A stretch of DNA of 64,000 nt from a virus (taxonomy: Duplodnaviria > Caudoviricetes): IMG/VR virus record IMGVR_UViG_3300025732_000016. One strand, given 5' to 3'. The notes under the pieces were generated by a model, which was not told the DNA's origin, searched no databases, and saw nothing but the letters and a program-made list of their open reading frames with translations. How positions within the stretch are numbered: the stretch's first letter is position 1; each line of letters begins with the position of its first letter. Shown piece by piece: positions 4,351-64,000 of this stretch. The position numbers and the translations under genes were made by a program.

Positions 4351-4360
4351 TGATCCCTCC

Positions 4361-5638: not shown

Positions 5639-5652
5639 CTGTCTGGGCTCCG

Positions 5653-15196: not shown

Positions 15197-15200
15197 GTGT

Positions 15201-15208
15201 ATATGTAG
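15201..15208 (-). promoter_or_regulatory. Putative late promoter motif CTACATAT, 4 nt upstream of ATG (leaderless)
   Basis: Intergenic instance of the recurring (A/C)TA(C/T)HTA motif; no Shine-Dalgarno before the ATG. Confidence 0.4.
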
Positions 15209-15254
15209 GTGCTGCTTAAGCTAATAGGCACATACTCACATGTGAAGGAACCAC

Positions 15255-19804: not shown

Positions 19805-19805
19805 C

Positions 19806-49251: not shown

Positions 49252-49291
49252 GCAGAATAGTTGTCTTCTGCGCGTCACCAGTAAACAGAAG

Positions 49292-49334
49292 AAGACTCCA
49301 CCTCAGGGCTTGAACAACCGAAAGGCGGAGTCTT
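49292..49334 (-). terminator. 12-bp RNA hairpin between the tail-fibre and glycan operons (terminator or processing stem)
   Basis: Minus-strand RNA AAGACUCCGCCU-N19-AGGUGGAGUCUU pairs fully with one G-U wobble and is followed by CUUCUGUUU. A second 8-bp stem (tcagttct/agaactga) lies at ~49344-49369. Confidence 0.55.
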
Positions 49335-49379
49335 AATAATTGTTCAGTTCTTCTTCAGTAGAGAACTGATACTCAATCT

Positions 49380-51689
49380 CTAAGACTGCTCATCCAGCTC
49401 AGGGACTCTCTCAAGGAGGAACTTATACCGCTTCCCAGTCTTGTTGAACCTGATCGAGAGGAAGTCTGGCTCTTCTATCAGAGTGTAGTCTCCCCTCTCA
49501 TTTCTGAGATGAAGATCGCCGGTGTAGATGTTAGCCCAGCGAGCAGTTGAGCTTCCAAGGTCCAGCGTTCTGTCACCGCTCGGTAGTATCGTTGTGCTCA
49601 CCTTCGCATTTGCGAACGATACTTGATCAGTGTTGATGTCATTTCCGAATGTGGTGTTTCCATTGACGACGAGACTGCTGTTGACAGTGGTGGTTCCAGA
49701 CGCGTTTCCAATTGTCAGAGTTGTTGCAGCTCCAGCAAAGTTCACAGTCGTAGCGACAGTATTGAAGACGCTCTGCGTTGTCTGGTTACCGACTAATGTC
49801 CCACCCTGAATCGTTGTTGTTCCGCCATTTGCTCCGATTATGACTGATGAACCGCTCAGCGTGAGTTCCTGTGCAACCGATGTGTCTCCTGCTGCGATCC
49901 TGAGTCCAGCACCTGCGCCAATTGTACCGCTTACTACACCGATGGGCACACCATGTCTCTCGAGCTGGAAACCATTGTTTCCAGCATTCAACCGTATGAG
50001 CGCACCGCTGATGACCAGGTTCTTGTTGCTAACAGCGCCGAACACCGCTGGGTTGCCAGCTCCGCCATCTTTGAAGTTGATGTACGAGAAGCCGTTGACT
50101 TGGAAGTCAACAATACCTCCGGTATTGGGGTTGAGCTCGATTGTGCTGCCCTTGGACGTGAGCTTTGATCCATCCGAAGAAGTTACGAAAGCTGTCGGTC
50201 CACCAAGCTCAAGCTTACCAGCCCTAAACGCCTGATAATCAACAACATTTATCGCGGCACCCACAGCGGCCGCTGTGGGTGTTGTATCAGTTCTCGCAAC
50301 CGTGAAGCCATCCGCGCTCTCATCCCAGAACATTGCAACGCTGTTCTCTCCGACGAGACCTCCTATGAAACCTCTATCGCTCAACGAGCCTGCAACCGAA
50401 CCAGAAGCAAAGCCCAGGCCTATCACTGGGTCCTGGATCTCCATCACTGTGGAGTCGATCGTTGTCGTTGTTCCGCTGATGTAGAGGTCACCCTTGACAA
50501 TCAGATTCTTGTTGACAGTCAGGTCATTGTTGACAGTTGTAGTTCCTGTGGCTGCACCGATATTGACAGTTGTTGCGGCACCTGCAACGCTGAGAGTCGT
50601 GACAGTCGTATTGAGAAGGTCAAAAGACGTTTGAGTGGAGGTGATCTTGTTTGTACCAGCGCCCGACGTGCCATTGACTGCGAGGCTTCCTGCCACCGTT
50701 GTCGTGTCAGAAACAGCATTTCCAAGTGTGGTGTTACCGTCAACTGTAAGATCATTGTTGATCGACGTTGTACCGGTGGCAGCTCCAATCTCAAGCGTAG
50801 TTGCAGCACCGGCAAAATTGACCGTGGTTGCAGACGTATTGACGAGATTGAAAGTGGTAGATGTCGTTGTTAGATCGCCGCCGTTGACTGCAAGATCATT
50901 CGAAGCTGAAACCACACCGACGAGAGTTGAAGTCCCACCCACAGTGAGGTTCGCACCGGCCTGCAGGTCACTGGAACCACTGATCACTCCGCCGTTGCTA
51001 ATAGAAGCGATAACCCCCGATGCAGTCTTGATGCTGAAGGACCCAGAGGTTATTACATTGCCACCGAATAAGGTGGCATTTGACCCAGCAGTGCCGACAC
51101 CTGCATTTGAACCAGAGAAGTAGAAGACGACGTCCGTGCCCTTGTCACTCGCAGCAGTGATGGTCTCGCCAGTCCTTGCGCCCGTGAATGCAACAGTTCC
51201 TGAGTTGTAGATGACTCCCGCTGCCGTCTCAGTGAAGAAGTTCGAGCCACCACCACCACCAGTCGAAGCAATCGTAACTGCACCGTTAGAGCCCGTTGTG
51301 ATCGTAACGTTGGTACCTGCAATGAGGTAGCTTGTTCCGTCTGCGAGCTTCGTGAGCGAACCGGTGAGACCAGCTGTCGTCGTCATTGCGCCGGATACGA
51401 CGAGTCCGTTCCTTGCAATGACTTGATCACCAATGTAGAGCGGTGATCCACCGAACAGTGTGCCGCTGATTACGACGTCACCGCCGAACACCGTTGTTCC
51501 TCTAACTGTGTAATCAGGGCTTGCAGCCGGAGAACCCGGAGAACGAGCCGCTATGTTACCTGAGACAAAGAATACTGCGTCTACGCCAGGCAGCGAAGGA
51601 TAAGTGGCATTGGGCCTGTTGGCAACAATGACCGATCCTGTGATTGCAACTATCGAGTTTGACCCCGATACGCTTCCAACTAACGCCAT
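49380..51689 (-). CDS. Tail fibre/fibre-like virion protein (769 aa)
   Basis: G/S/T/A/V-rich beta repeats; C-terminal LDLGSSTARWANIYTGDLHLRNERGDYTLIEE..L...NKTGKRYKF module typical of fibre proteins of large myophages. Confidence 0.8.
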   Translation of the reverse strand: MALVGSVSGSNSIVAITGSVIVANRPNATYPSLPGVDAVFFVSGNIAARSPGSPAASPDYTVRGTTVFGGDVVISGTLFGGSPLYIGDQVIARNGLVVSGAMTTTAGLTGSLTKLADGTSYLIAGTNVTITTGSNGAVTIASTGGGGGSNFFTETAAGVIYNSGTVAFTGARTGETITAASDKGTDVVFYFSGSNAGVGTAGSNATLFGGNVITSGSFSIKTASGVIASISNGGVISGSSDLQAGANLTVGGTSTLVGVVSASNDLAVNGGDLTTTSTTFNLVNTSATTVNFAGAATTLEIGAATGTTSINNDLTVDGNTTLGNAVSDTTTVAGSLAVNGTSGAGTNKITSTQTSFDLLNTTVTTLSVAGAATTVNIGAATGTTTVNNDLTVNKNLIVKGDLYISGTTTTIDSTVMEIQDPVIGLGFASGSVAGSLSDRGFIGGLVGENSVAMFWDESADGFTVARTDTTPTAAAVGAAINVVDYQAFRAGKLELGGPTAFVTSSDGSKLTSKGSTIELNPNTGGIVDFQVNGFSYINFKDGGAGNPAVFGAVSNKNLVISGALIRLNAGNNGFQLERHGVPIGVVSGTIGAGAGLRIAAGDTSVAQELTLSGSSVIIGANGGTTTIQGGTLVGNQTTQSVFNTVATTVNFAGAATTLTIGNASGTTTVNSSLVVNGNTTFGNDINTDQVSFANAKVSTTILPSGDRTLDLGSSTARWANIYTGDLHLRNERGDYTLIEEPDFLSIRFNKTGKRYKFLLERVPELDEQS
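49640..50870 (-). repeat. Three ~45-aa internal repeats in the tail fibre
   Basis: TTFNLVNTSATTVNFAGAATTLEIGAATGTTSINNDLTV / TSFDLLNTTVTTLSVAGAATTVNIGAATGTTTVNNDLTV / QSVFNTVATTVNFAGAATTLTIGNASGTTTVNSSLVV (coordinates approximate). Confidence 0.85.
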
Positions 51690-51717
51690 GTGATCTCTCC
51701 TTTACGAGTTTCAATGA

Positions 51718-51725
51718 TTATGTAT
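51718..51725 (-). promoter_or_regulatory. Putative late promoter motif ATACATAA followed by AAGGAG RBS
   Basis: Intergenic motif instance upstream of the 769-aa fibre. Confidence 0.45.
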
Positions 51726-51736
51726 ACGACTGCGAT

Positions 51737-52819
51737 CTAATCAAGAGGTTGAAGCATCATCTTGTAGCGCTTTCCTGTCTTGTTGTTGATGACGCAGAGA
51801 AACTCTTCTTCCTCAAGGATTGTCCAGTCTCCACGATCGTTCCGCAGGTGTAGGTCGCCCGTGTACACGTTCTGCCAGCGGAGTGCAGGAGTTCCAAGAT
51901 TGTAGGTGAAGTCGGAGTTGGGAGTGATTGAACCCTTCAAGCCAATCGATCCCGTGATCTGCATTGAGCCCGACATGAAGATGTTTGTTATGCCACCGGT
52001 ATCAGTCGTTCCAATCCTGATATTCGTTGTAACACCCGGGTCTGCCCCAAGACCGAAGTTCAAGTTCTTTGTGCTACCAACCGCGGTGGCACCACACGCG
52101 AGGTTCAAAGTAACGTTGCCAGTCCTCGCAGAAGCGACGGTGAACGTGTGTGAAGTGCTGCCCGCAGAGTTTCCTATTGAGATGCTAGAAGCTGCACTGC
52201 CCAGAGAAATTGTCGATGCATTAGTGGGAAAAACGGTGACTGTGCTAGCGTTAGTTAGGAAGTCACCGCCATTTACTGTGAGGTCACCTTCAATTGCGAG
52301 ATTACCATTTGACTGCGTGGCAGTGATAGTTGCGTTACCGCCTGAGTCCTTTAGAGTGATGCTACCTGAGTAGACGGTATTTCCGCCGAAGAGAGTAGAC
52401 TTGGTGCCGTCTCTTGAACCAGACACATAGAAGAAGACGTCCGCTCCCTTGTCACTTGGAGAGTCAACAGAGCTTTCACCACCTCGGAATGCTGCAGATC
52501 CAGTGGTGAAAATTGATCCGTTTGTCGTTGAATCGAAGAATTCGTCGACTGTTAGAGTGACACCGGTCAGAGTGCCCGAGATGTGAACGTCGCCACCAAA
52601 TGTAACCCTGTCACTGCCGCCAGTAGAGCCAGAGATGAAAAGCCACGTGTCTGAACCTGTACCCGCAAGTATGAGGTTGCCAGTGTCGACGGTGACCCCA
52701 TCGTTCCCAGCAGCCCCTGATCCGATGAGCAGAAGTCTCGGGTTTGTTGAGCTCCCCGATGCGATAAGCCTCTCTGCACGTATGCCAGAAGACTTGAAAT
52801 CTGGTGGTCTTGTAGCCAT
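51737..52819 (-). CDS. Tail fibre/fibre-like virion protein (360 aa), paralog of 49380-51689
   Basis: Shares the FF.....G.I..sG..AF.G.......SDKG.DV.FY.SGS module and the C-terminal YNLGTPALRWQNVYTGDLHLRNDRGDWTILEE...NNKTGKRYK module. Confidence 0.8.
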   Translation of the reverse strand: MATRPPDFKSSGIRAERLIASGSSTNPRLLLIGSGAAGNDGVTVDTGNLILAGTGSDTWLFISGSTGGSDRVTFGGDVHISGTLTGVTLTVDEFFDSTTNGSIFTTGSAAFRGGESSVDSPSDKGADVFFYVSGSRDGTKSTLFGGNTVYSGSITLKDSGGNATITATQSNGNLAIEGDLTVNGGDFLTNASTVTVFPTNASTISLGSAASSISIGNSAGSTSHTFTVASARTGNVTLNLACGATAVGSTKNLNFGLGADPGVTTNIRIGTTDTGGITNIFMSGSMQITGSIGLKGSITPNSDFTYNLGTPALRWQNVYTGDLHLRNDRGDWTILEEEEFLCVINNKTGKRYKMMLQPLD

Positions 52820-53064
52820 TAGCTTGTACTCGCAATGAGATATTCTGCAGTGCCGCCAGACGTATCAGACGTGATGACTAGAAAGATGTCATTTGTCTGC
52901 TTGTGAGGTGTGATAGACACGTTTGTGTGGGGAGTCATGACCACTCCGACGTTAATAGTAGAGTCTATTGCTGGATCTGTGGCAATCACTGATGACTGAT
53001 CCGCAGCCACTGACATGCTACCAAACTGTAGCACCACTTTGTTGGCTCCCAATTTCGCTCTCAT
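52819..53064 (-). CDS. Small beta-rich protein, probably fibre-associated
   Basis: 81-aa ORF coupled on both sides (ATGA and TAATG). Confidence 0.6.
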   Translation of the reverse strand: MRAKLGANKVVLQFGSMSVAADQSSVIATDPAIDSTINVGVVMTPHTNVSITPHKQTNDIFLVITSDTSGGTAEYLIASTS

Positions 53065-53375
53065 TCTGACACCACAATGATGGAAACTGACTCAGAAGTG
53101 GCAAAGCTCGCACCGACGGTGACTGTATCAGTCGTGATTGCCTTGATGAACACATTGAAGCTGTCATTTTGAGCTGTTGCAACGACGACGGGAACGCTGG
53201 AGTACGTGTGCTTGAAGTTATAGACAACCTCGTTGCTGCCTCCGAAATCTACCACGGCGCTTTCAAGGACGACAGCATCATCCGACTGGTAGGTGTACTT
53301 CGGCTCCTTTCTAAGAAATGGGTAGACTTTCGCGTAGCGATTGAGATCAATCTTACGAAAGACTGCTGTCGCCAT
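53061..53375 (-). CDS. Small fibre-associated protein, H-type-lectin/gp53-like beta domain
   Basis: VYNFKHTYSSVPVVVATAQ...VFIKAITTDTVTV...SIIVVS resembles the F...F...P.V......T...F.....w.aiG pattern; GAGGTG RBS. Confidence 0.55.
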   Translation of the reverse strand: MATAVFRKIDLNRYAKVYPFLRKEPKYTYQSDDAVVLESAVVDFGGSNEVVYNFKHTYSSVPVVVATAQNDSFNVFIKAITTDTVTVGASFATSESVSIIVVSE

Positions 53376-53391
53376 GAATCACCTCTTCGAG

Positions 53392-53399
53392 CTAAATAG
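53392..53399 (-). promoter_or_regulatory. Putative late promoter motif CTATTTAG
   Basis: Intergenic motif instance heading the fibre operon. Confidence 0.42.
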
Positions 53400-53411
53400 G
53401 AAGCTCAAAGC

Positions 53412-54725
53412 CTACAGTGATTGACTTGCCAACGTTGCGAGCGGAGATCTTTCACCACGATCGAGCCTGATGTGACCGAAAAGCTGAGAGCCCTTTAACC
53501 TCTCGATCGCGATTGTCAATCCGTTCGAGAACCTGTCGAGGTAGGGAGTGTCAACCTGCTCTGTGTCACCAAGCAGGACCATCTTAGTTCCCTCACCGCA
53601 CCTCGTCACGAGAGTCTTGATCTCGTGGATGGTGAGGTTCTGGGCCTCATCAACGATGATATAACAGTTGCTGAAGCTTCTTCCTCGAATGTAAGAAATG
53701 GGGCTCACTTCAATGATCCCGCGCTGTCTCATGGTCTCGAAATAGGTCGTGTCTCGGAAGGCATTGCGAAAGTTGTCAACGATGGGCATGAGCCACGGAG
53801 CCATCTTCTCATCGAGAGTCCCGGGCAGGTAGCCGAGATCTCTTCCCACGGGCTCGATAGATCTTGTGATGATGATTCGCTCATACTTCTTCGAGTTGAG
53901 ACCAGCCATTCCTGCCGTAAGAGCAAGGAATGTCTTTCCCGAACCAGCAAGGCCTGTCATTGCCACGAGGGGCACATCACCATCGTTCAGGAGGTGGATT
54001 GCCGCTTTCTGCTCCTTCGACCTGGGCGTTATTCCAATGGAGTCGACCTTTGCTTTTGGCTGGATGATCTTACCACCTTTCACCATTCCAATGAGGCTCT
54101 TCTGCGGATTCGTCTCTGAGACTCCCACCACGAGAGAGTTCTCACAGAGGCTCTCAGAGTTCACTGGAGTAACCCACCCATGCTGGTAATAGGATTCCAT
54201 GTCCTCATCACTCAGAGTCATCTGAGATTGGCCAGAGTACACAGGGTTACCTTCTCGAACTGCCTGTGGAACATCCCTGTAATAGTCCTCGGCAGTGATG
54301 CCAATTGCATCGGCCTTGAGCCGGAGGTTGATGTCTTTTGTGACGATGATGACCTGGTTGTCGGGCTTCGAGTGACGCAGCCAGGCAGCAACCCACAGGA
54401 GCTTGTGGTCGCCCTTCTTCAGGTCGAACTCCTTCGGAATGAGACCGTCCTCGATGTCAGACATCCCGTCGCTGACGACTCGGATGTTAACGTCGTTCTC
54501 TGGGAGGTGAATCCCATCGTGGAGACTTCCCTTCTTCCTCAAAGAGTCCAGGGACCTGTTCACTTCTCTCGCCGCGCTGCCGATGAGCTCTTTTCGATCC
54601 TTGAACCTATCGAGCTCCTCGAGAGCTATGAGCGGAATGACCACATCGTTGCCAGTGAATGCGAAGATGGAAGAAGAATCGTAAAGTAGGACGCTGGTGT
54701 CAATGACAAATGTCTTTCTGCTCAA
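53412..54725 (-). CDS. phoH: PIN-PhoH fusion protein (PhoH2/PhoL type)
   Basis: PIN: FVIDTSVLLYD, IALEELDRFK, TKDINLRLKADAIG. PhoH: TGLAGSGKTFLA, LGYLPG..DEKM.PW, YIRGRSF, DEAQN, GDTEQVD. TTG start at 54725 with GAGGG RBS (ORF track starts at 54836). Confidence 0.92.
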   Translation of the reverse strand: MSRKTFVIDTSVLLYDSSSIFAFTGNDVVIPLIALEELDRFKDRKELIGSAAREVNRSLDSLRKKGSLHDGIHLPENDVNIRVVSDGMSDIEDGLIPKEFDLKKGDHKLLWVAAWLRHSKPDNQVIIVTKDINLRLKADAIGITAEDYYRDVPQAVREGNPVYSGQSQMTLSDEDMESYYQHGWVTPVNSESLCENSLVVGVSETNPQKSLIGMVKGGKIIQPKAKVDSIGITPRSKEQKAAIHLLNDGDVPLVAMTGLAGSGKTFLALTAGMAGLNSKKYERIIITRSIEPVGRDLGYLPGTLDEKMAPWLMPIVDNFRNAFRDTTYFETMRQRGIIEVSPISYIRGRSFSNCYIIVDEAQNLTIHEIKTLVTRCGEGTKMVLLGDTEQVDTPYLDRFSNGLTIAIERLKGSQLFGHIRLDRGERSPLATLASQSL

Positions 54726-54750
54726 GTTATTGTCCCTCAGACAAGTTTCT

Positions 54751-54758
54751 ATACATAC
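54751..54758 (+). promoter_or_regulatory. Putative promoter motif ATACATAC on the plus strand upstream of the only plus-strand gene
   Basis: Same motif as the minus-strand instances, inverted together with its gene. Confidence 0.4.
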
Positions 54759-54782
54759 TTCTGACTTTCGTAACCTTCTCTT

Positions 54783-55058
54783 ATGGCAAGAGAGAAACTT
54801 GAAGTCGTTCCCCACACTACCTGCTTTGCAGAGCACGAGAAGAGGTCACTCTCCTGTGAGAAGTCTTCCTGCCGAATGTGGGTAAAGGATGGTTCCTCGC
54901 TGAACTGCTGCCTCATAAAAGCGCGTGAGCCCCACACTCTCCAAGAGATCGGTGATCTCTTTGGCGTTACCCGCATGCGGATATGCCAACTAGAGAAGTC
55001 GATACTCCGGAAAGTGGAGGCTGCTAACGATCTGACTGAGCTCAACCCTTGCGCTTAG
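54783..55058 (+). CDS. Cys/His-rich (Zn-binding) protein with sigma-70 region 4 HTH
   Basis: HTLQEIGDLFGVTRMRICQLEKSILRKV is a sigma70_r4 signature; N-terminal C..H....C....C...LNCC. Confidence 0.85.
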   Translation: MAREKLEVVPHTTCFAEHEKRSLSCEKSSCRMWVKDGSSLNCCLIKAREPHTLQEIGDLFGVTRMRICQLEKSILRKVEAANDLTELNPCA

Positions 55059-55440
55059 ATGCCTTCGCGACAGGAGCTGCGGCAACAGGAGATTCCACCT
55101 CTACGGCGGGCTCCTGCGCTGGGGACTCAGGAGATGGCTCTGGAGTAACCACTGCGGGCTCAACCACAACCGGCTCCTCGATGAGTGCCGCAGCCGCAGC
55201 TGGAGGTTCAGAAGTGATGGCAGCAGGAGTCTCCTCAACCTGCTCTTCTCTGACGGGAAGAGCAACCCCAGCAACCCCAGCAACCTCAGTCTGAGTCTCA
55301 GTATGGGTCACGGGTGCATCTTCTGTCTGAGGCACCCAACCACGCGGTCGAGAAGGCTCAACAGGGTGAGACGGGGCAACCCCACGCGGCCGTGGCGCGG
55401 GTGGCTCAACAAGAGGAGCTACCCCACGGGGCAGTGACAT
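55042..55440 (-). CDS. Low-complexity P/A/E/V-rich, likely disordered protein with three PRG(V/W)(A/V)P repeats
   Basis: LPRGVAP...RPRGVAP...RPRGWVP, acidic middle, basic end AKASKRKG; DNA-level duplication at 55340-55410. Confidence 0.6.
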   Translation of the reverse strand: MSLPRGVAPLVEPPAPRPRGVAPSHPVEPSRPRGWVPQTEDAPVTHTETQTEVAGVAGVALPVREEQVEETPAAITSEPPAAAAALIEEPVVVEPAVVTPEPSPESPAQEPAVEVESPVAAAPVAKASKRKG

Positions 55441-55646
55441 TACTCTACCTTCTCTGACTTCCGAGACTTCTCAGTCTCAACAGTCACCTTTGTGAGCGCT
55501 GCAGCTCTCGCCTTCAGGGTACGAAGTCCCTTGCGAGCCCTGACTCCTGCCGATGCATTTCCAGCAGCGTTCTTACGAACATCGAGGTCAATGCCCTCAA
55601 CGATTCCCCGAATCTCGGTCCAAATCTCCAGGATCGAATTCTCCAC
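55440..55646 (-). CDS. Histone H1-like protein, Hc1 family
   Basis: KNAAGNASAGVRARKGLRTLK matches the GNKAAGxRARK core of Hc1; GTG start with AAGGAG RBS. Confidence 0.75.
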   Translation of the reverse strand: MENSILEIWTEIRGIVEGIDLDVRKNAAGNASAGVRARKGLRTLKARAAALTKVTVETEKSRKSEKVE

Positions 55647-55866
55647 TTGCTTTTTCTCCTTCGGGAGCGATGAGCTCCTCTTTGTTGATGATGTGAGGCT
55701 TGATGACCTCTAGTACCGAGAGCATCGCTTCTCGGTTCTCTAACTCCAGGCTGAGAAGCTCAATGAGCTTCATTCTCTGGTAGTCAGTGACTCCAAAATC
55801 GTTTATTCTCTGATTGATCTCGCGGCATGTCTGAATCTGCCTGAGCCAATCTGTGTCGATTGACAT
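55597..55866 (-). CDS. Hypothetical protein (89 aa)
   Basis: Coupled by TAATG upstream; plausible composition. Confidence 0.6.
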   Translation of the reverse strand: MSIDTDWLRQIQTCREINQRINDFGVTDYQRMKLIELLSLELENREAMLSVLEVIKPHIINKEELIAPEGEKASGEFDPGDLDRDSGNR

Positions 55867-56333
55867 TAGAATGTCTCCGTCATGTCGTATGACTCGATCT
55901 TGAACTTATTCGAGCCCTCAAAAGTGAGAGTCTTTCCCTTCACTTTACCATCCTCTGACTGCCTCGTCAAGACTATTCTCTCACCCCATCTCTGGTTTGA
56001 GTAGATGAAGTGAGCTTGTTCCCAAGTAGCTATGTCACACTCATAGCTTGCAAGAACATTAGAGAGCTCTGTGGGGATCATAAGCGAGATGTCTTTGACA
56101 GTGATTATCGACGATGATTTTTCTTTCGTAGTGATCTCAGACTTGCAAAAGTCAATGACAGAATGGATCACTCCGCAATTCGTACACTCAGCGTCCTTTG
56201 GTATTACGTTACCACCATCGTCCAACACCGAGAACACTACGAACGAGTGATACACAGGATTGGGCAACCTCCTTAAAGTAGGGAGGACGCAATGGCACTG
56301 CACGAGATGCTTGATCCCTTCCATTCTGCTCAC
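55866..56333 (-). CDS. Hypothetical protein with CXC/CXXC (possible Zn ribbon)
   Basis: HLVQCHCVLP, AECTNCGVIH, FC; GTGA overlap with the upstream gene. Confidence 0.7.
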   Translation of the reverse strand: MSRMEGIKHLVQCHCVLPTLRRLPNPVYHSFVVFSVLDDGGNVIPKDAECTNCGVIHSVIDFCKSEITTKEKSSSIITVKDISLMIPTELSNVLASYECDIATWEQAHFIYSNQRWGERIVLTRQSEDGKVKGKTLTFEGSNKFKIESYDMTETF

Positions 56334-56551
56334 TTACGAAAAAATTTCTGAACCTGTCCCCAAAGCGACGGGTAAGCGTTGTTCGCAGACTGCTCAATGC
56401 TTAGCTGCACAGCTGCAACAATCTTCTGCGTCACTCTATCATCGATCCCTTCTTGACGACAAATCGTGATAATGTTGTTAGAAGTCGTGTCCTTCACTGC
56501 ACCGAAAACATTGAAGTACTGTCTTCCAAAATCAGCTTCATTCATGTACAC
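56330..56551 (-). CDS. Hypothetical protein (73 aa)
   Basis: GAGGTG RBS; coupled to the downstream gene. Confidence 0.6.
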   Translation of the reverse strand: MYMNEADFGRQYFNVFGAVKDTTSNNIITICRQEGIDDRVTQKIVAAVQLSIEQSANNAYPSLWGQVQKFFRK

Positions 56552-56590
56552 CTCATGTTGTATCGAATCATCAAGAGCGATAGTGTAAAC

Positions 56591-57046
56591 TTACCTTGCA
56601 CTCTTATCAGCCAGTGTTGAAGATACCCAAGAGTTAGGCTTCACCTGGCACTTGAAGCCGTAGGCTCCCACCATTGCAGTGAGCTCTTTTACGTACTTCG
56701 AAGACTTGTGGACGGCAGTGTTGAGATCGAGGTGAACCTCTGGGTCCCTTCCAAACTCATCTCGAATTTCGCTTGCAACTGTGAGAGATCTAACAGCCTC
56801 CTCAGTAAGCCGCTGGTGTAGGTGGCGAAAATCAGACTTTTGCGCCTGGTCCCTGACGTAGAAGAACCTGCCTCCCTTGCCCGGGTAGTACACTGCAATC
56901 ACTGTCGCAAACACCCACTGTCCACCGAGCATGTGTGAGTCTGATCCAACGAAGATCTGGACTTCCTTGTCACGAATGAGAGACTCGAGCTCTTCTGTTT
57001 TTGCCGTCTCTCCGCTTGGCCACTTCCACTTTCTTGTCGATAACAA
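56591..57046 (-). CDS. RNase H-like YkuK (DUF458) family protein
   Basis: IFVGSDSH, FATVIAVY..GKGGRFFY, RLTEEAVRS, EVHLDLN, VKPNSWVSSTLAD. Confidence 0.85.
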   Translation of the reverse strand: MLSTRKWKWPSGETAKTEELESLIRDKEVQIFVGSDSHMLGGQWVFATVIAVYYPGKGGRFFYVRDQAQKSDFRHLHQRLTEEAVRSLTVASEIRDEFGRDPEVHLDLNTAVHKSSKYVKELTAMVGAYGFKCQVKPNSWVSSTLADKSAR

Positions 57047-58232
57047 GGGCGCCTCCCGTATTTCTAACTAGCTGTCTGAACGCTTCATACGTTGAGAGGG
57101 CAATTTTGTAAGAGTCACCTGGGTACGCCCTACACCCAATCATCGTGATTCCCTTTCTCCTTGACACGAGGAAGCATCTCATGCCATGGTCAAATCTTTC
57201 TTTCACTATCTCTCTTGTATCGCCGAACTCTTCACCGATGCAGACAGAAACTCTCCTCGAAGAGATTCTCGAGATGCGATTCTGCAACATTCGCAAGATA
57301 TCAGGATCGCTGAACTGTGAGATCTCACCCCGCAGCTTTCTCAATAACTCATCTCGCCCAGCAGTATCTCTCAAGTGAACCTTGAGCTTACCGTTCTCTA
57401 CGACAACATCGTGACAGTTAGAGTCGTCCTCGTGGGAGATGAGGTTGACAGTCTCCTGCCCAATGACCGTGCTCAAGTCTGAGATCGTAAATTCGTCCTC
57501 GACCGAGGTTCCGGGAGTGAGGGGCACGATGTCAAAAACTCCCCTCTGGTTGTTGGCGAAGATCGTGCTGGCCACCTCTGAAGAGAACGCTCTCGCAACG
57601 AGCAGGACTCGAGAATTGTCAAGTGAACACTTCTCGAGGAATGTGTTCACTTGACCGACGCTCTCGATGACCCCGTCAAAAACGACTATTTGTCTGGAAG
57701 TTAGGGATCGAGAGGTGTGAAAGCTCGGAGAGACTATCACTGGATAGGACGATGACTCGTCAACAGAGATGTGTGTAATGCCTCCGACTGAGACTGAGAC
57801 ATTCCCTGTGGCTCCCGCCTGCCCGATGCTGTCGAGTAACAGGCTTCTCACCGTCTCGTCTTGGACATCGTCGATGAGAGCCGGGAGGTCGCTCTCCAAC
57901 ATCGTCCTTGTACCCGATGCCACCAGTTTTTCGCCTGATAGAAGACGCAAGAAGAGGTATGAAGAGGCGGGTGAAGCCTGCTCAGCCCTGTACGCCGACA
58001 ACAGGACCAATGAGCGAGCGATTCTTTCAATGTCACTCTTGGACTTCCAAGACGACAGGACCCTGAGAGAGTCTGCGGGTGACCCTCCCAGTGCCCTGTC
58101 CTTGAAGACCTCGACTATCGAAGAACCGATAGTCTCGATAGTCCCTTGAGCTATCTTCCTCGCCGCGGCAAGGACAGACTCACCGTCACCAGTGAGTCGT
58201 CTAGCTGTCTCTCCAGAGGTTGTTGGCGGCAA
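56970..58232 (-). CDS. Highly divergent GroEL/Cpn60-like protein lacking the GDGTTT motif
   Basis: Apical-domain-like IVVFDGVIESVGQVNTFLEKC...VLLVARAFSSEVASTIFANNQRG..DIVPLTPG...ISDLSTVIG; RISRISSRRVSVCIG; C-terminal YPGDSYKIAL...LVRNTGGALVID. Probable TTG at 58232 with GAGGAG RBS (ORF track starts at 58349). Confidence 0.68.
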   Translation of the reverse strand: MPPTTSGETARRLTGDGESVLAAARKIAQGTIETIGSSIVEVFKDRALGGSPADSLRVLSSWKSKSDIERIARSLVLLSAYRAEQASPASSYLFLRLLSGEKLVASGTRTMLESDLPALIDDVQDETVRSLLLDSIGQAGATGNVSVSVGGITHISVDESSSYPVIVSPSFHTSRSLTSRQIVVFDGVIESVGQVNTFLEKCSLDNSRVLLVARAFSSEVASTIFANNQRGVFDIVPLTPGTSVEDEFTISDLSTVIGQETVNLISHEDDSNCHDVVVENGKLKVHLRDTAGRDELLRKLRGEISQFSDPDILRMLQNRISRISSRRVSVCIGEEFGDTREIVKERFDHGMRCFLVSRRKGITMIGCRAYPGDSYKIALSTYEAFRQLVRNTGGALVIDKKVEVAKRRDGKNRRARVSHS

Positions 58233-60126
58233 AGGTGATAATCTCCTCAGCAGATTCTGGTGTGTAGCCGTAGTCTTGTACAAGCGCATTGACCATTTCT
58301 GAGTACTTCTTCTGCTGCTCGTTGTCTCTGCTCTTTGACTTCGTGACAATTCGCGCCATGTCCTTCACTGAGGAGATGAGGTAGCCCTCGATCGCCTCAC
58401 GGAGGGGCTCGTAGGAGCGGTAGTCGACCTTCGTTCCGCGCCGAATCTTCGCGAACATGTAGGCCGTCACGTCAGCTCGGAACCCGTCCTTCATCGAGCC
58501 CGTGATCCCGATCTGCTCCTCGAGAGCCTTCATGAACTTCTCGTCAGGCTCTCTCTCCTCGGAGGTGACCCTGTCCTTCATCTTCTGTCGAGTCGTGAAG
58601 GCCTCTGCGTTGTCGAGGTAGTTGTCGAAGAGAGACTGGGCCTGCTCCTCGTAGGCGGTGACGAACGCCTTTGCGATCTCTCCCTCGAGGATCTTCAGGT
58701 ACTCCTCACGGATGACCTTCTGGAGGATCTCGAGATAGTTCTTCTTCTTCTCCTCGTCGACAACCTGCTCCTTCACCTGCTTGATGAGAGCTTCGACGAC
58801 TCTCATCGGAGTGATGAAACCCTTGTCAGAGTCGGTGAGTGCAGAGTCAATTGCCTTCGTGATGAATCGGGTAGAGATTCCCTCCATACCCTCGTGCTTT
58901 GCCTCATCACGGAGGTCAGTGATGTCGACCTTGCGCGTCCTGCCCTTCTCGACAATCTCCTGGCCGTCGTAGATCTTCATCTTGGTGAGGAGGTCACACT
59001 TCTGGGAAGGCTTGAGGCGGCTCATCACCGAGAACATTGCCGCGACCTTGATCGTATGGGGAGCGAGGTGATACTTGAAGTCGGACTTGCGAAGCATCTT
59101 CTCGTAGATCTTCATCTCCTGCGTGAGCTCCAGGACGTATGGAACCTCGATCTTCACGACGCGATCGAGGATGGCCTCGTTCGTGTGCTCAGACTTGAAG
59201 CGATTCCACTCTGCCTCGTTGCAGTGTGAGAGGATGACACCGTCGAAGTAGAGCATCGAGTTCTTGCCCGGTGTCGGAACATTCTTCTCCTGGGTCGCAG
59301 TGAGGATCGTGTGGAGGAACTCGATCTCGTTCTTGAAGATCTCGACAAATTCCACCACACCGCGGTTACCGACGTTGAATGCACCGTTGAGGTTCAGGAC
59401 TCGGGGATCGTCCTCGGAGAACTTGTCCAGCTTTGAGATGTCCTCTGAGCCGATGAGGGCCGAAACGTCCTGAGAGTTGGCATCCATGGGAGGGACGACC
59501 GCGATACCCCTGCGCGCTCTCTGCGAGAAGGATGAGCGGACCACAGGGAACTTCTCGTACTCGCCCTTGAACTCTTCCATGAGCCTGTATCGACAGACCG
59601 GACAGAGGTCTCCCTCGATGTGGACACCGAGGATCTTCTCGAACTCCTCCCTCAATGACCTCGGAAGGAGGTGAAGCGGCTCCTCGCGAACTGGGCAGCC
59701 ATCGAGATGGTAGACGGGCTCTGCAGCCTTCTCAAGAGCCTTCTTCACCGCGTCGGCAAGTGCGCTCTTTCCTGATCCGACAGGTCCCATGAGAAGCAGG
59801 ACCTGCCTGCTTTCCTCACCCTTCAGGGCAGCGGACTTCAGGAATCGCATGAGCTTTGCAATGACGCGCTCATGGCCGTAGAATTCGTCCCTGAAGTAGC
59901 TGTAGGTCTTTAGCTTGTCGCTGCCGAACAGCTTTCGGCAGCGAGGATCAGTCTCATCCATTGTGCTCACACCGTATGACTCTACGGCGTCAACGAGTCT
60001 CCTCGCGGCGAGCTTTGTCACGTCAGGATCTTCCTTGACGAGCTTCAGGTAGTCGATGAAACTACCCTTCCAAGAGTCCTTCTGCGACTCAACCCTTTGC
60101 TTCTTAATGATGTCGAGAAAATCCAC
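58201..60126 (-). CDS. prkA: PrkA/YeaG family AAA+ ATPase (serine protein kinase-like)
   Basis: LMGPVGSGKS Walker A, GCPVREEPLHLLP, QDVSALIGS, FNVGNRGVVEFVEIFK, HCNEAEW, GISTRF; GTG start with GGAGG RBS. Confidence 0.95.
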   Translation of the reverse strand: MDFLDIIKKQRVESQKDSWKGSFIDYLKLVKEDPDVTKLAARRLVDAVESYGVSTMDETDPRCRKLFGSDKLKTYSYFRDEFYGHERVIAKLMRFLKSAALKGEESRQVLLLMGPVGSGKSALADAVKKALEKAAEPVYHLDGCPVREEPLHLLPRSLREEFEKILGVHIEGDLCPVCRYRLMEEFKGEYEKFPVVRSSFSQRARRGIAVVPPMDANSQDVSALIGSEDISKLDKFSEDDPRVLNLNGAFNVGNRGVVEFVEIFKNEIEFLHTILTATQEKNVPTPGKNSMLYFDGVILSHCNEAEWNRFKSEHTNEAILDRVVKIEVPYVLELTQEMKIYEKMLRKSDFKYHLAPHTIKVAAMFSVMSRLKPSQKCDLLTKMKIYDGQEIVEKGRTRKVDITDLRDEAKHEGMEGISTRFITKAIDSALTDSDKGFITPMRVVEALIKQVKEQVVDEEKKKNYLEILQKVIREEYLKILEGEIAKAFVTAYEEQAQSLFDNYLDNAEAFTTRQKMKDRVTSEEREPDEKFMKALEEQIGITGSMKDGFRADVTAYMFAKIRRGTKVDYRSYEPLREAIEGYLISSVKDMARIVTKSKSRDNEQQKKYSEMVNALVQDYGYTPESAEEIITFAANNLWRDS

Positions 60127-60134
60127 GTTCCCTC

Positions 60135-61460
60135 CTACGAGATCTCAAATTCTTCATTTTCTACGTCAGTGAACAGCTTGACGGGACCGTGCCAGATGTT
60201 CCTGATGAGCTTGACGCAGTTGTCTGCGTAATCGAGCTCGAGGTCCCTTCCGTCATGTTCATGCCGCAGTTCTAATGTATTGTCCTTTGCCACGTGATCG
60301 ACGTATATCGTCGGAATCATATTGCCGGCAATGCTCTGCAGGAGGGCGGCCCTCACCTCCTGCCAGCTTTCGTCGTCTTCGACAATGTCGTCAACTGTCC
60401 AATCAGGGTTCTTCTTGCCCTTCGGACTGAAGGTGAAGAGGTTGAGCTCTCTCGCCTTCTCCTCGGTGAGGTACTGCATGATGAAGTTCTCGTCGTTGCA
60501 GACCTCTCTCGCAAGGAAGCACTCCTCTATGCCGAATCTCTTCTCGATGTCCTTGAAGATTTCAAAACCGAGGTGGTATGGGTTGATCTTGAGACCCCAC
60601 GGTCGAAGGACAGCGTTGTGAGTCTTGAGGAAAGGGAGGTGATGCTCATCAGCGAGCTCAAGGTCATGGAGAATTCTGTAGTGCCAGAAGCTCGCCCACC
60701 CCTCATTCATAACCTTTGTCCTGATCTGCGGCCAGAAGTAGAGAGACTCGTCATGGACTATCGAGATGATGTCCCGCTGCCAATCTGTGAGCTTGTGATT
60801 GTTGTCAAGGACAAACTGGAGGATGTCATACTCAGGCTCAAGCGGGAGGTCATCGATATTGAAGTCCTTCCACTCTCCCTTCTCGTCGTTCTTGATGAGG
60901 TCGATGTACTTCTTACGAAGCTCTCTCTCGGACGGTCTCGTCCTGCCGCGACGATCGGTCTGGTAAGTGAATGCGTGGCAGGCATCGATGATCTTCTCCA
61001 CGGCCTCAATCCCTATCGTCGGGTCCTCGATGTAGGCCTTAATCCGCTTTCCGGCATTCCTGAACCTCATCGTGACGGTCGCGGCGTCAGTGTCCTTGAA
61101 CGTCCGATTGTTCTTGAAGAAGTCCGAGTGGCCGACGCAGTGCGCCATGATGAGAATCTGGAGGTACAGCGGGTTCTCCAGCATCAGGTATGCGATTGAC
61201 GGATCAGAGTTGATGATGAGCTCATACGGAAGGCCCTCAGCGCCCGCGTTGTACATGAAGTGCGTCCTCTCGAACGTCTTTCCGTACGACCAGTGTGCAT
61301 AGTGAGAGGGCATCCCGTGGTAAGCCATGTGACCGATCATCTCACGGTAGTCACAGGTCTCATAGGCTATCGGGTACCAGTCGAGGCCGTGCTTTCTCGC
61401 GATCTCGCAGATCTTCTCGTCCCATTCCTCGAGATCACTCAAGTTGTAGTCACCCATCAC
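60135..61460 (-). CDS. spoVR: SpoVR/YcgB family protein
   Basis: GMPSHYAHWSYGKTF, YELIINSDPSIAYLM, MAHCVGHSDFFKNN, PQIRTKVMNEGWASFWH, NPYHLGF, HDGRDL. Confidence 0.96.
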   Translation of the reverse strand: MMGDYNLSDLEEWDEKICEIARKHGLDWYPIAYETCDYREMIGHMAYHGMPSHYAHWSYGKTFERTHFMYNAGAEGLPYELIINSDPSIAYLMLENPLYLQILIMAHCVGHSDFFKNNRTFKDTDAATVTMRFRNAGKRIKAYIEDPTIGIEAVEKIIDACHAFTYQTDRRGRTRPSERELRKKYIDLIKNDEKGEWKDFNIDDLPLEPEYDILQFVLDNNHKLTDWQRDIISIVHDESLYFWPQIRTKVMNEGWASFWHYRILHDLELADEHHLPFLKTHNAVLRPWGLKINPYHLGFEIFKDIEKRFGIEECFLAREVCNDENFIMQYLTEEKARELNLFTFSPKGKKNPDWTVDDIVEDDESWQEVRAALLQSIAGNMIPTIYVDHVAKDNTLELRHEHDGRDLELDYADNCVKLIRNIWHGPVKLFTDVENEEFEIS

Positions 61461-62632
61461 TCACTCCCAAAGAACTTGCTAAAGACAGGCCAAACGTCAT
61501 CCTTACTCACCAGCGTGGCAGTGCGAAGAACTGGCGAGAGAGCCTTGAGATTGTTCATGAGCTTCGAGGCAGAGTCACTCTGCCAAGCGGGAGTCGAGCC
61601 CTTCGGCTTGATCTCACAGTAGCCGACCATCTGGCTGATGTCACAGAGATCCCTGTACATGTCGAAGGCCTTCGCGTTGTCTTCTTCGAAGTTGTCGCCG
61701 TCCGTGCAGTGGAACACATAGACGTTCCAAGCCGAAGGATGGTACCGCTCGTTCGCAATCTCAATCGCGAGCTCAGGAGCCGAGGAGACGTGCGTGCCAC
61801 CGGATGATCCCCTCTTGAAGAAGGAGTCCTCATCAGTCTCGAAAGCCTCAGTCGTGTGACCGATGAAGACAATCTCGACCTTCTCGTACTTGTGGCGGAT
61901 GAACTGGTAGAGGAGGAAGTAGAAGGACCTTGCGATGAACTTGATGTCCTGGGTCATCGAGCCGGAGACGTCCATCATGAAGAAGATGACGGCGTTTGTC
62001 GCCTCCTTCGGTTTCGCCTTGATGTGGTGGTACCGGAGGTCGTTGTCGTGGAATGGGAAGACCTCATTGCCGTCCTCATCCACCTCCACCTCTCCGGCCC
62101 TTCGTGCTGCCGCGAGGCGCTTTATCCGCTGGATGGCAGACTCTCTCTTGTCGAGCCGCGGTGGAATGCCCTGGGGGCGTGTGCCATGTCGCTTTGGCCT
62201 CTCCTCGAGAACTGTTCGCAGCTTCTTCCTCTCTAGCTCTGGGAGATTCAACGAGGAGAAGAGGTACTCTGCGAGCTCTTCGAGGGTAATCTCGACCTCG
62301 TAGAACTCCTCTCCCTTGTCCTTACCAGCCTTGCTGCCGGAGCCCTGCCCCTGCTGTTGACCCTTCCTTACGACCTGCCCCTTTTGGATGTCGGCGTTAG
62401 GAGCAGAGCCCACCTGCTTCTGACCCTCGTTGTCGCCATAGACGAACTGCCACTCCTTGATGCCACGAACAGGAATGCGGATCTTCTTCTTCCCATCCTG
62501 CCCAATGATCGACTCTTCAGAGACGATATCTGTGATGCCGTCTTTGATCGCTTTCTCAATCTTTTGCTTGTGACGAGAACGGTCCGCTGCGGAGCGGTCT
62601 GCTGAAGTCTTGTGTTCACGGAAGATAGACAT
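61457..62632 (-). CDS. yeaH: YeaH/YhbH (DUF444) vWA-domain protein
   Basis: DRSRHKQKI, KIRIPVRGIKE, LNLPELE, FHDNDLRY, FFMMDVSGSM (MIDAS), SGGTHVSSA, YHPSAWNVYVFHCTDGDN. Confidence 0.96.
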   Translation of the reverse strand: MSIFREHKTSADRSAADRSRHKQKIEKAIKDGITDIVSEESIIGQDGKKKIRIPVRGIKEWQFVYGDNEGQKQVGSAPNADIQKGQVVRKGQQQGQGSGSKAGKDKGEEFYEVEITLEELAEYLFSSLNLPELERKKLRTVLEERPKRHGTRPQGIPPRLDKRESAIQRIKRLAAARRAGEVEVDEDGNEVFPFHDNDLRYHHIKAKPKEATNAVIFFMMDVSGSMTQDIKFIARSFYFLLYQFIRHKYEKVEIVFIGHTTEAFETDEDSFFKRGSSGGTHVSSAPELAIEIANERYHPSAWNVYVFHCTDGDNFEEDNAKAFDMYRDLCDISQMVGYCEIKPKGSTPAWQSDSASKLMNNLKALSPVLRTATLVSKDDVWPVFSKFFGSE

Positions 62633-62638
62633 CTAGTA

Positions 62639-62646
62639 ATAGATAT
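62639..62646 (-). promoter_or_regulatory. Putative late promoter motif ATATCTAT, 6 nt upstream of the yeaH ATG (leaderless)
   Basis: Motif instance heading the YeaH-SpoVR-PrkA operon; no SD before the ATG. Confidence 0.42.
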
Positions 62647-62672
62647 CCATCCCGTGCCACTAGTAACCAGTG

Positions 62673-63041
62673 TCAGCCGTAAGACTTCTCTTTTGCCCAC
62701 TGCACTGCTGGATACAGGAAGTCTGGGCAATTCTCTTCAAGAGTTCGCCACGGCACGTACATCATGCCCTTCCTTGAGTTCGGCTTTTTGCCGCTCATCA
62801 CGACGAAGGTGACAAGGTCGCCGACTTTGTAAGAGTCTTCGGTGAGGAAATCACTCTCACTCACCCGAATGCCGCAGTCGCGCCAGGCTTCTCGCAGTGC
62901 AGTTCTCATGAGGGGTTCGTTGTGTTCTCTGCTGCCCCGTGGAATGTTGAGATAATCTCCGTCCTCAAAGACCAGGACTTTGTCGAGTGTGGGGCTAACA
63001 ATGAAGAGGCCAGCGCCCTCTTGGCGCCTGTAAGTTGTCAT
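62673..63041 (-). CDS. Nudix-fold protein with degenerate Nudix box
   Basis: GAGLFIV...KVLV...IPRGSREHNEPLMRTALREAWRDCGI (GX5EX7REUXEEXG with EE replaced by RD). Confidence 0.75.
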   Translation of the reverse strand: MTTYRRQEGAGLFIVSPTLDKVLVFEDGDYLNIPRGSREHNEPLMRTALREAWRDCGIRVSESDFLTEDSYKVGDLVTFVVMSGKKPNSRKGMMYVPWRTLEENCPDFLYPAVQWAKEKSYG

Positions 63042-63042
63042 T

Positions 63043-63423
63043 TTATACTACGTGAAATACCATCGGCATTAGTTTCTTTCGAATTGTTCGGCAACGAGAC
63101 GCCGCTTCCCTGTGCCGGTGTTCTCTCATGACCATCATGAGAAGCTTTCTAAAAATCATCGCGAGGCTCTCGCATATGTGAGAGATTTTATCATCGCCGT
63201 CGCACAATGATAGGCCTTCTTCTGCAAGAGCCTCGAGCTTGAGAAAATGTTTTGTGATGCAATCAGGACACTGCTTCGACTGGTGATTGAGGTGGTCTTC
63301 CAGCAGCGTCAGCTCCTTGCAGATCTCGCGAAGATTGTGCTCCGGCTTCATGATGGGGAGCATTGACTCTGAGAGTTTCATTCTCAGCGTGAGTGACTTA
63401 GATCCGCAAGACTTGCAATGCAT
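63043..63423 (-). CDS. Hypothetical Cys/His-rich helical protein
   Basis: ATG at 63423 directly after the cupin stop (ORF track starts at 63594): MHCKSC...NLREICKELTLLEDHL..QCPDCITKHFLKLEALAEE. Confidence 0.65.
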   Translation of the reverse strand: MHCKSCGSKSLTLRMKLSESMLPIMKPEHNLREICKELTLLEDHLNHQSKQCPDCITKHFLKLEALAEEGLSLCDGDDKISHICESLAMIFRKLLMMVMREHRHREAASRCRTIRKKLMPMVFHVV

Positions 63424-63427
63424 GCAA

Positions 63428-63435
63428 CTATGTAT
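63428..63435 (-). promoter_or_regulatory. Putative late promoter motif ATACATAG, 4 nt upstream of ATG 63423
   Basis: Motif instance overlapping the cupin stop codon. Confidence 0.35.
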
Positions 63436-63781
63436 CTCTTGCGTAGTCATCCTCAAGGCGAACGACGTCATCGAGCTCAGGAGTTGAGACCTCAACAATG
63501 TCAACGTCTCCCTTGTAAGCGCAGAAACGGTGGACAGTGCCGGGAGTGACGTGGAATGTGCTTCCTTCGCAGTAGTCGAACCGGTGCTCGACATTTGGAC
63601 CAGTCTCGATGGTCAAAAGACCGCTAAGAACCCTGATCGTCTCTTCTTTCTTGAGATGGTACTGCCTGCTCAGACGATGACCATTGTTGATGTGAAGAAT
63701 CTTACCAACGTACTTTGGCGTCTCAGCCCAAATCTCTTCGTGGCCCCAGGGCTTTTTTACTATTCTCACGCTTTCCCTCAT
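63428..63781 (-). CDS. Cupin, mannose-6-phosphate isomerase-like
   Basis: VKKPWGHEEIW, LSRQYHLKKEET, HVTPGTVHRF, EVSTPELDDVVRLEDDY. ATG at 63781 (ORF track starts at 63793). Confidence 0.85.
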   Translation of the reverse strand: MRESVRIVKKPWGHEEIWAETPKYVGKILHINNGHRLSRQYHLKKEETIRVLSGLLTIETGPNVEHRFDYCEGSTFHVTPGTVHRFCAYKGDVDIVEVSTPELDDVVRLEDDYARDT

Positions 63782-64000
63782 AAACCAGATCATATCCTAC
63801 AACAGCAGAGAAAGCGTTTACAAGCTCACCGGCAACTTTGTTGGCTTCGTCTTCTAAATCAGAAGAGAAGTGAAGCTCGTCATATTCGATTCCGCCATTT
63901 TCATGTTGAGCCAAGTGAGATAGTTCGTGAGCCATCGATCTTAGAACATCTACGAACGCTCTTCCCTTTCCGTAGATGCGAACACTTCCCTCCTCAGGGA
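63723..64000 (-). CDS. Zincin-like metallopeptidase (HEXXH); partial, 5' end beyond the right edge
   Basis: The frame stays open to 64000: ...GSVRIYGKGRAFVDVLRSMAHELSHLAQ...EDEANKVAG. Confidence 0.72.
   Translation of the reverse strand, partial: PEEGSVRIYGKGRAFVDVLRSMAHELSHLAQHENGGIEYDELHFSSDLEDEANKVAGELVNAFSAVVGYDLVYEGKRENSKKALGPRRDLG

Follow-up and report, generated by a model that had tools for sequence, protein, structure and literature searches.

The 64,000-nt stretch of DNA analysed here (the window; bases 10698-74697 of the 81,484-bp record IMGVR_UViG_3300025732_000016 in IMG/VR) carries homologues of the three genes of the bacterial prkA-yhbH-spoVR module, namely DUF444 (YeaH/YhbH), SpoVR (YcgB) and PrkA (YeaG), in that rotated order. 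A sequence-only reading had proposed that this is a complete, permuted and phage-encoded operon, and our analysis bears this out: phage hallmarks flank it, the rotated order recurs in all of the related viral loci examined, and the genes are under strong purifying selection, so that the phage module is, by its sequence, evidently functional. It belongs to jumbo phages of a widespread, uncultured and T4-related lineage with genomes of up to ~290 kb, of which it is a core component and not a recent passenger. By the CheckV estimate the 81,484-bp record is ~23% complete, and the whole genome should therefore measure several hundred kb. As to what the module does, we tentatively propose that it sets off bulk breakdown of host protein during infection, a reading to which we give somewhat less than an even chance and which is weighed against others below.

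All three genes are full length, translationally coupled and well over the Pfam cut-offs (the curated value is 25 bits for both PrkA domains; scores are in Table 1). They are packed as tightly as the sequence-only reading had described, with the DUF444 stop and the SpoVR GTG start overlapping as GTGA and a gap of 8 nt between SpoVR and PrkA, where a GGAGG lies just 5' of the PrkA start. The gene call of the Joint Genome Institute (JGI) uses an alternative SpoVR ATG 3 nt further on, leaving a 1-nt overlap with DUF444. Intactness was assessed in an alignment of PrkA sequences, 81 from phages and 79 from bacteria, by asking which columns with at least 97% invariance among the bacteria are kept in the phages. 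For PrkA, 183 of 230 bacterial-invariant columns were kept, including Walker A (G114-S121), E259, E262, N303 and R322; the Walker A motif itself (GPVGxGKS) and the Walker B acidic residues E259 and E262 do not vary in any phage or bacterial row. DUF444 kept 48 of 71 such columns, including the residues of the metal-ion-dependent adhesion site (MIDAS; D221-x-S223-x-S225, T280, D311), and SpoVR kept 65 of 88, including H56, E80, H107, H111, D113, E155, H260 and H281. Family matches, coordinates and the conserved residues thus agree with the claim of three full-length genes with intact motifs.

Structural comparisons gave the same identities. PrkA matches a solved structure named 'serine protein kinase' (9xip, E 1.5e-108), and the AlphaFold2 (AF2) model of SpoVR, with a predicted local distance difference test (pLDDT) value of 85, fits the AlphaFold models of B. 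subtilis SpoVR and E. coli YcgB with template-modelling (TM) scores of 0.84 and 0.81, respectively. The Pfam scan listed no MoxR-type family for PrkA; besides the PrkA AAA domain, there were only generic P-loop matches (AAA_16, Sigma54_activat), near or under cut-off. A complex prediction with PrkA residues 22-632 and DUF444 residues 5-389 scored 0.01, which is evidence for neither side. We also observed that a Cys/His cluster within the AAA+ domain of PrkA (C144, H152, C175, C178; CPxxE...H...CPVC), invariant in bacteria, is kept in 30 of the 81 phage rows, those of the window's subclade, and replaced by Asp, Ser or Ala in the other 51, and for this reason the probable metal site seems to be dispensable in part of the phage lineage.

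The operon is embedded in phage DNA. On one side of it the record has a T4-type portal, a large terminase (TerL), an S77 prohead protease and an SbcC-like gene, on the other an XPD/DinG-like helicase, an N6/N4 DNA methylase and a phage tail lysozyme, and nothing beside the operon is host-like. The same phage recurs in two JGI contigs (169 kb and 85 kb), which encode an identical PrkA in identical gene order. Two freshwater metagenome runs cover 44001-64000, from the structural genes through the triad, at an even depth of ~16-20x, and contig pieces span every gene junction of the operon. There is no tRNA in the window, and hence no clue to the host from tRNAs, and no integrase family was seen among the larger open reading frames (ORFs) of the record that were scanned. 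At the same time, IMG/VR labels the record 'provirus'; given the hallmarks on both sides and the absence of tRNA and integrase from the regions scanned, this label looks artefactual, and it may be an artefact of classification, perhaps caused by the bacterial-looking genes. That the segment is host DNA or a chimeric assembly, a possibility raised in the sequence-only reading and in keeping with the label and with the typically bacterial distribution of all three families, is so improbable in the face of the flanking hallmarks, the even depth and bridged junctions in independent runs, the same synteny in 80 viral contigs (one of them a complete genome with terminal repeats) and the absence of the phage order from all 79 bacterial loci, that we reject it.

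The order DUF444-SpoVR-PrkA was found in 80 of 80 related IMG/VR loci, and in these PrkA is usually followed by a GroEL-like gene, an RNaseH-like gene, a 155-aa ORF and a PIN-PhoH fusion. The complete genome among them, bounded by direct terminal repeats, has 293,409 bp and encodes a T4-type portal, and four further contigs of 235-306 kb that carry the three genes also bear a T4-type portal. A scan of IMG/VR with the window's PrkA gave at least 158 contigs whose encoded relatives are 65-91% identical to it, and a broader scan returned at least 450 contigs encoding PrkA. Moreover, a large protein collection gave thousands of PrkA matches, the best 120 of which are all at least 85% identical and come from contigs of up to 290 kb. 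The nearest phage copies come from freshwater and lake metagenomes. A search for near-identical DNA in the GenBank phage collection gave no match, and the closest portals of cultured phages, those of Microcystis phage Mel-JY01, Flavobacterium phage 'immuto' and Rhodothermus phage RM378, are 33-41% identical. Short contigs covering parts of the operon and of the structural genes occur in lake metatranscriptome libraries; such contigs cannot reveal strand, level or transcription, and therefore are no evidence of expression, just as stretches free of RNA cover carry no meaning.

Direct comparison of the window phage with five large contigs gave identities of 66-90% for PrkA, 54-85% for SpoVR and 51-77% for DUF444, set beside 61-86% for the portal and 56-80% for TerL, so that the conservation of PrkA exceeds that of both portal and terminase; across the 80 related loci DUF444 is 51-87% identical. 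Nonsynonymous divergence (dN) from close relatives was 0.06-0.27, and synonymous divergence (dS) was saturated, for which reason exact dN/dS ratios are lacking for most pairs; wherever computable, dN/dS was at most 0.09 (the pair of GroEL-like genes with locus L007 was misaligned and left out of this calculation). Because a large and abundant phage lineage keeps the three genes more faithfully than its terminase, the module must strongly benefit infection.

In bacteria the order is PrkA-DUF444-SpoVR in 73 of 79 loci, the remaining six being cut short, and the phage order occurs in none, in line with the earlier statement that prkA usually precedes yeaH. The nearest cellular PrkA proteins are 55-60% identical and belong to Clostridium and other Bacillota (Clostridia), Desulfobacterota and Binatia. 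The sole 'bacterial' PrkA match at 68% is on a contig binned as TMED69 (L086; NHDW01000006.1, 305,838 bp, 'MAG: Methylococcaceae bacterium TMED69'), which has the three genes in phage order together with their neighbours, the 155-aa ORF and PhoH. This gene order and these neighbours make the contig evidently phage; the metagenome-assembled genome (MAG) also holds a T4-type portal and a terminase, and NHDW01000006.1 is apparently a nearly complete jumbo phage genome that ended up in a bacterial bin.

Quick maximum-likelihood trees (IQ-TREE), one each for PrkA, DUF444 and SpoVR, placed the phage copies in a single clade with support 100 in each of the three. The phage stem in the PrkA tree is long (0.44 substitutions per site) and lies beside a clade of Bacillota with a modest support of 86. 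The phage sequences are thus not nested within one bacterial clade, nor do they show bacterial synteny, an outcome that the sequence-only reading had named as refuting its claim. The single well-supported clade in all three trees and the long PrkA stem fit one old acquisition of the whole prkA-yhbH-spoVR unit followed by vertical descent. On this account an ancestor of the lineage would have taken up the bacterial unit once, after which the unit would have been reordered to yeaH-spoVR-prkA and joined to a shrunken GroEL-like gene devoid of its ATP motif.

The module is not new to phages, and the window is a well-documented further member of a known set. By tblastn we found PrkA in 17 GenBank phage records (11 records of Thermus phages, Ralstonia phage RsoM2USA, four metagenomic megaphages and Enterobacter phage LAU1). 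These copies are ~32-35% identical to that of the window and sit on long separate branches, which suggests that they were acquired separately from the window lineage. PHROGs has families for all three genes, and our literature search, incomplete in its coverage, turned up no discussion of the trio as a phage module. Of the two parts of the earlier claim, then, the presence of the trio in phages is real, and its novelty falls, because the genes are in published phage genomes (phiYS40, RsoM2USA, the megaphages) and common in IMG/VR.

The gene that follows PrkA, which the sequence-only reading had described as overlapping and chaperonin-like, is indeed a GroEL homologue; the JGI gene call gives the identical 420-aa product. 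Its family profile matches GroEL in the PDB with E 1.8e-38, and its AF2 model (pLDDT 90) retrieves GroEL chains by Foldseek at E 3e-18 with TM scores of up to 0.63, highest for GroES-bound conformations. It shares the GroEL fold and the apical and intermediate domains with group I GroEL and with the phage GroEL homologues of phrog_5725. Unlike group I GroEL, it lacks the nucleotide-binding GDGTTT, which reads SPASSY when aligned with two bacterial GroEL sequences (the family consensus has neither D nor T at these columns), and it lacks ~75 residues of the equatorial domain, GroEL residues 419-494 being without counterpart. Since these parts are lost and no GroES-like gene was seen, the protein probably does not form an ATP-driven folding cage; from its sequence, it is a shrunken chaperonin, probably incapable of hydrolysing ATP. 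We detected the gene in about half to two thirds of the 80 related viral loci and beside PrkA in none of the bacterial loci (n=79), and the protein has 628 relatives in a representative protein library.

Our proposal for the module, which as said we put at a little under an even chance, is that it triggers YeaG-type bulk proteolysis of the host to feed virion synthesis in starved cells; it is made because this programme is the only defined physiological output of the family. When E. coli starves, it degrades cytoplasmic proteins in a largely non-specific way and so gains amino acids and ATP for new synthesis, a response that requires yeaG (renamed spdA; PMC13684143; 2026). By analogy, an infecting phage would make its own PrkA AAA+ ATPase, its own YeaH with vWA domain and MIDAS, and its own SpoVR; the three would switch on bulk, mostly non-specific breakdown of cytoplasmic protein, of the sort that depends on YeaG (SpdA) in starving E. 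coli; and in hosts that grow slowly on few nutrients, host proteins would be turned into the amino acids and ATP that a very large virion demands, a recycling of protein that may be likened to the recycling of host DNA by phage nucleases. For a jumbo phage in starved lake bacteria, which has to pay for so large a particle, the gain would be obvious. The data show what the genes are, that they are intact, lie in phage DNA, go back to a single origin and are strongly conserved; that the three proteins act together, and that their output is turnover of the host proteome, we infer. In B. subtilis, the Walker A lysine of PrkA is needed for function and the protein shows weak ATP-dependent caseinolysis (PMC9512850). 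Taken together, the three PrkA/YeaG papers make PrkA look like an unfoldase that needs partners.

Several points weigh against this proposal. Flux through starvation-induced protein degradation in E. coli is a few percent of the proteome per hour, and this may be slow relative to a lytic cycle. In the PNAS study (PMC13684143) yeaG was the one gene of the module that was tested, and yeaH and ycgB go unmentioned. Moreover, carefully purified PrkA of B. anthracis, which was classed with the FtsH/YME1-type AAA+ proteins, had no detectable protease or kinase activity (PMC13001217), so that even for bacterial PrkA the literature is divided on a protease activity.

All four proteins can be joined in one reading, which we consider unlikely though worth stating, as a split FtsH-like ATP-dependent protease. 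PrkA would be the unfoldase, YeaH the MIDAS adaptor and SpoVR a divergent zincin-fold hydrolase contributing the missing catalytic site; jumbo phages would use it to digest the host proteome for virion amino acids, and the GroEL-like protein, dead for ATP, would be a holdase for protecting clients or delivering them. If true, this would be a viral counterpart of starvation autophagy. In SpoVR the residues H107-x-x-x-H111-x-D113 are invariant and have the His spacing of zincins, with Val or Cys at the position of the catalytic Glu; SpoVR does not have the HExxH zinc-binding and catalytic motif. Among the searches made with SpoVR, the VIA fold search alone points to zincins. Searches for a peptidase with phmmer and with profiles against the PDB gave nothing, Pfam at E <= 10 gave SpoVR families only, a feature search of the ESM Atlas gave no usable match, and an hhalign alignment of SpoVR with DUF885 had a probability of 0.5%. 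Assignment of SpoVR as a peptidase by sequence was therefore rejected, the PDB, Pfam, ESM Atlas and hhalign searches being without support for it. Our literature search, again of incomplete coverage, found no paper linking SpoVR to zincins.

The proteins might instead serve the phage as signalling parts in a regulatory takeover of host dormancy, keeping a starving host metabolically active or blocking its entry into dormancy without bulk proteolysis, an explanation that we regard as improbable, if deserving of attention. YeaG has been proposed as a signalling component in nitrogen starvation, and phage genes that alter dormancy reportedly have precedent. The cellular PrkA proteins closest to those of the phages include ones from spore-forming Clostridia, and PrkA has been proposed as a signalling component in sporulation, where mutants of prkA, yhbH and spoVR alter sporulation gene expression in Bacillus; kinase activity, on the other hand, was not demonstrable for the Bacillus proteins (PMC13001217, PMC9512850). 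Moreover, the module is found in hundreds of phage contigs from freshwater and other aquatic sources, whose hosts are unlikely to be spore formers, and because all three large genes are intact and as conserved as the portal, they suggest a machine rather than a single regulator.

If the machine served the phage itself, it could be a remodelling or assembly chaperone, in which the AAA+ protein, the adaptor with vWA domain and MIDAS, and the GroEL-like protein would fold, mature or disassemble phage complexes such as giant structural proteins, by analogy with MoxR-vWA systems. Pairs of AAA+ and vWA proteins are commonly maturation chaperones, RavA-ViaA and CbbQ-CbbO among them; the module adjoins the structural block and is translationally coupled to the GroEL-like gene, and many proteins of the window exceed 1000 aa. 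We nevertheless think this rather doubtful, as the AAA+ domain is of the PrkA type and not of the MoxR type, the unrelated Thermus phages that have the trio build different virions, the GroEL-like partner is absent from about a third of the related viral loci and from all bacterial ones, and SpoVR would be left without a role.

A role in counter-defence, with the module unfolding or removing specific host defence or stress proteins, has little to commend it. AAA+ unfoldases can be targeted by adaptors, of which the MIDAS domain could be one, and the module is placed among accessory genes; accessory genes for counter-defence, however, usually vary among related phages, whereas the module is as conserved as core genes, and the PADLOC and anti-defence match of PrkA is to a generic P-loop only.

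The surroundings of the operon are listed with it in Table 1.

Table 1. The module and neighbouring features, all on the minus strand, in coordinates of the window.
Feature	Position	Strand	Properties
NUDIX/MutT-like upstream neighbour	62673-63041	-	122 aa; phrog_1198 E 7e-4 (weak); no Pfam match
Spacer ahead of module	62633-62672	-	40 nt; GGTTACTnAG, ~17 nt, GATAYnTATWRT, then ATG
DUF444/YeaH/YhbH homologue	61457-62632	-	391 aa; vWA protein; first gene of the module; PF04285 E 3e-107, 359.7 bits; phrog_19072 E 7e-93
SpoVR/YcgB homologue	60135-61460	-	441 aa (440 aa from ATG at 61457); PF04293 E 7e-119, 397.6 bits; SpoVR_C is PF24755
PrkA/YeaG homologue	58201-60126	-	641 aa; PF08298 E 1e-143, 479 bits (AAA+); PF06798 E 8e-80, 268.6 bits (C-terminal pseudokinase-like domain)
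Truncated GroEL-like gene	56970-58232	-	420 aa; TTG start at 58232 behind GAGGAG; overlaps PrkA 3' end by 32 nt
RNaseH_like gene	56591-57046	-	PF04308 E 5e-28; downstream neighbour, syntenic in many related loci
PIN-PhoH fusion (PhoH2-like architecture, PIN N-terminal)	53412-54836	-	PF02562 E 1e-52, PF13638 E 2e-30; downstream, syntenic in most related loci

The element in the spacer ahead of the module is common, in an alignment of upstream regions, to the window and its closest relatives L007, L009 and L019. It resembles a -35/-10 pair that ends a few bases 5' of the ATG, and judging from this likeness it may be a sigma-70-like promoter; a consensus scan of 56000-64000 for promoters and terminators gave nothing beyond shuffled expectation and did not call it. 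The sequence-only reading had placed ahead of the operon a motif shared with virion genes, and this point was not confirmed: the 14-mer before the DUF444 ATG is not enriched in the window (three matches against 2.4 expected), TTACTAG occurs in the window at this one site only, and the T4-type TATAAATA is absent from the window. Among the 80 viral loci, ~17 have a counterpart of the NUDIX-like gene before DUF444 (25-41% identity by tblastn). A gene for an HSP20 small heat-shock protein lies a few kb 5' of the module, past the high end of the window (contig L178 of the same phage, 1542-1961), and forms a local cluster of proteostasis genes with the PrkA AAA+ gene and the GroEL-like gene. The GroEL-like, HSP20, PIN-PhoH and NUDIX-like neighbours together fit a theme of starvation and proteostasis.

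Further away, a run of very large ORFs at 8098-24013 on the minus strand (1202, 867, 1232 and 1113 aa) has no PHROG match. Laminin_G_3 domains occur in two ORFs, that of 1113 aa (20672-24013) and one of 750 aa at 2098-4350, just beyond the run, and there is a weak baseplate-wedge match in the block of large ORFs. The run presumably encodes tail or baseplate fibre proteins of a lineage that is poorly represented in phage protein families.

PrkA/YeaG, YeaH and SpoVR form one of the most widespread bacterial modules whose biochemistry is unclear, and phages offer a compact, self-contained system in which to work out its action. Recycling of host protein by the module, if it takes place, would give phages of nutrient-poor waters an auxiliary function of a new class and affect the turnover of carbon and nitrogen in infected cells. 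As a database finding the module is not new, having been annotated in published phage genomes; the interest lies in the breadth and strength of its conservation and in a mechanism that is now testable.

Among the known systems closest to the module is the YeaG/SpdA programme of E. coli, whose AAA+ protein is homologous to the phage PrkA; that programme was shown for a chromosomal, RpoS-controlled yeaG in starving cells (PMC13684143). Among phages, Thermus phage phiYS40/TMA (YS40_056-059; GenBank DQ997624, 2006) has DUF444, SpoVR and PrkA in the same rotated order as the window. Its PrkA is only ~33% identical to that of the window and on a very long separate branch, and since phage type and host differ, the module was probably acquired independently. 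Between its SpoVR and PrkA genes, phiYS40 has a 616-aa ORF of no known family (YS40_058; 4076-5926 of locus L004), for which kinship with PrkA or with the GroEL-like protein was ruled out by hhalign. In the Ralstonia jumbo phage RsoM2USA the three genes (ORF30-29-28) are likewise adjacent and intact, in the bacterial order with PrkA first. Its PrkA is ~32% identical to that of the window and has no GroEL-like gene beside it; the paper on this phage annotates SpoVR and PrkA singly and does not discuss a module (PMC8504454). The cellular modules themselves, prkA-yhbH-spoVR in B. subtilis and Clostridium and yeaG-yeaH with ycgB in E. coli, have the same families, domain content and invariant motifs as the phage module, which, as in a cellular operon, consists of three adjacent genes with overlaps or with gaps of at most 8 nt. 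Unlike them, the phage module is encoded by a virus, has its order rotated so that PrkA comes last, has gained a truncated GroEL-like gene and stands on a long branch of its own.

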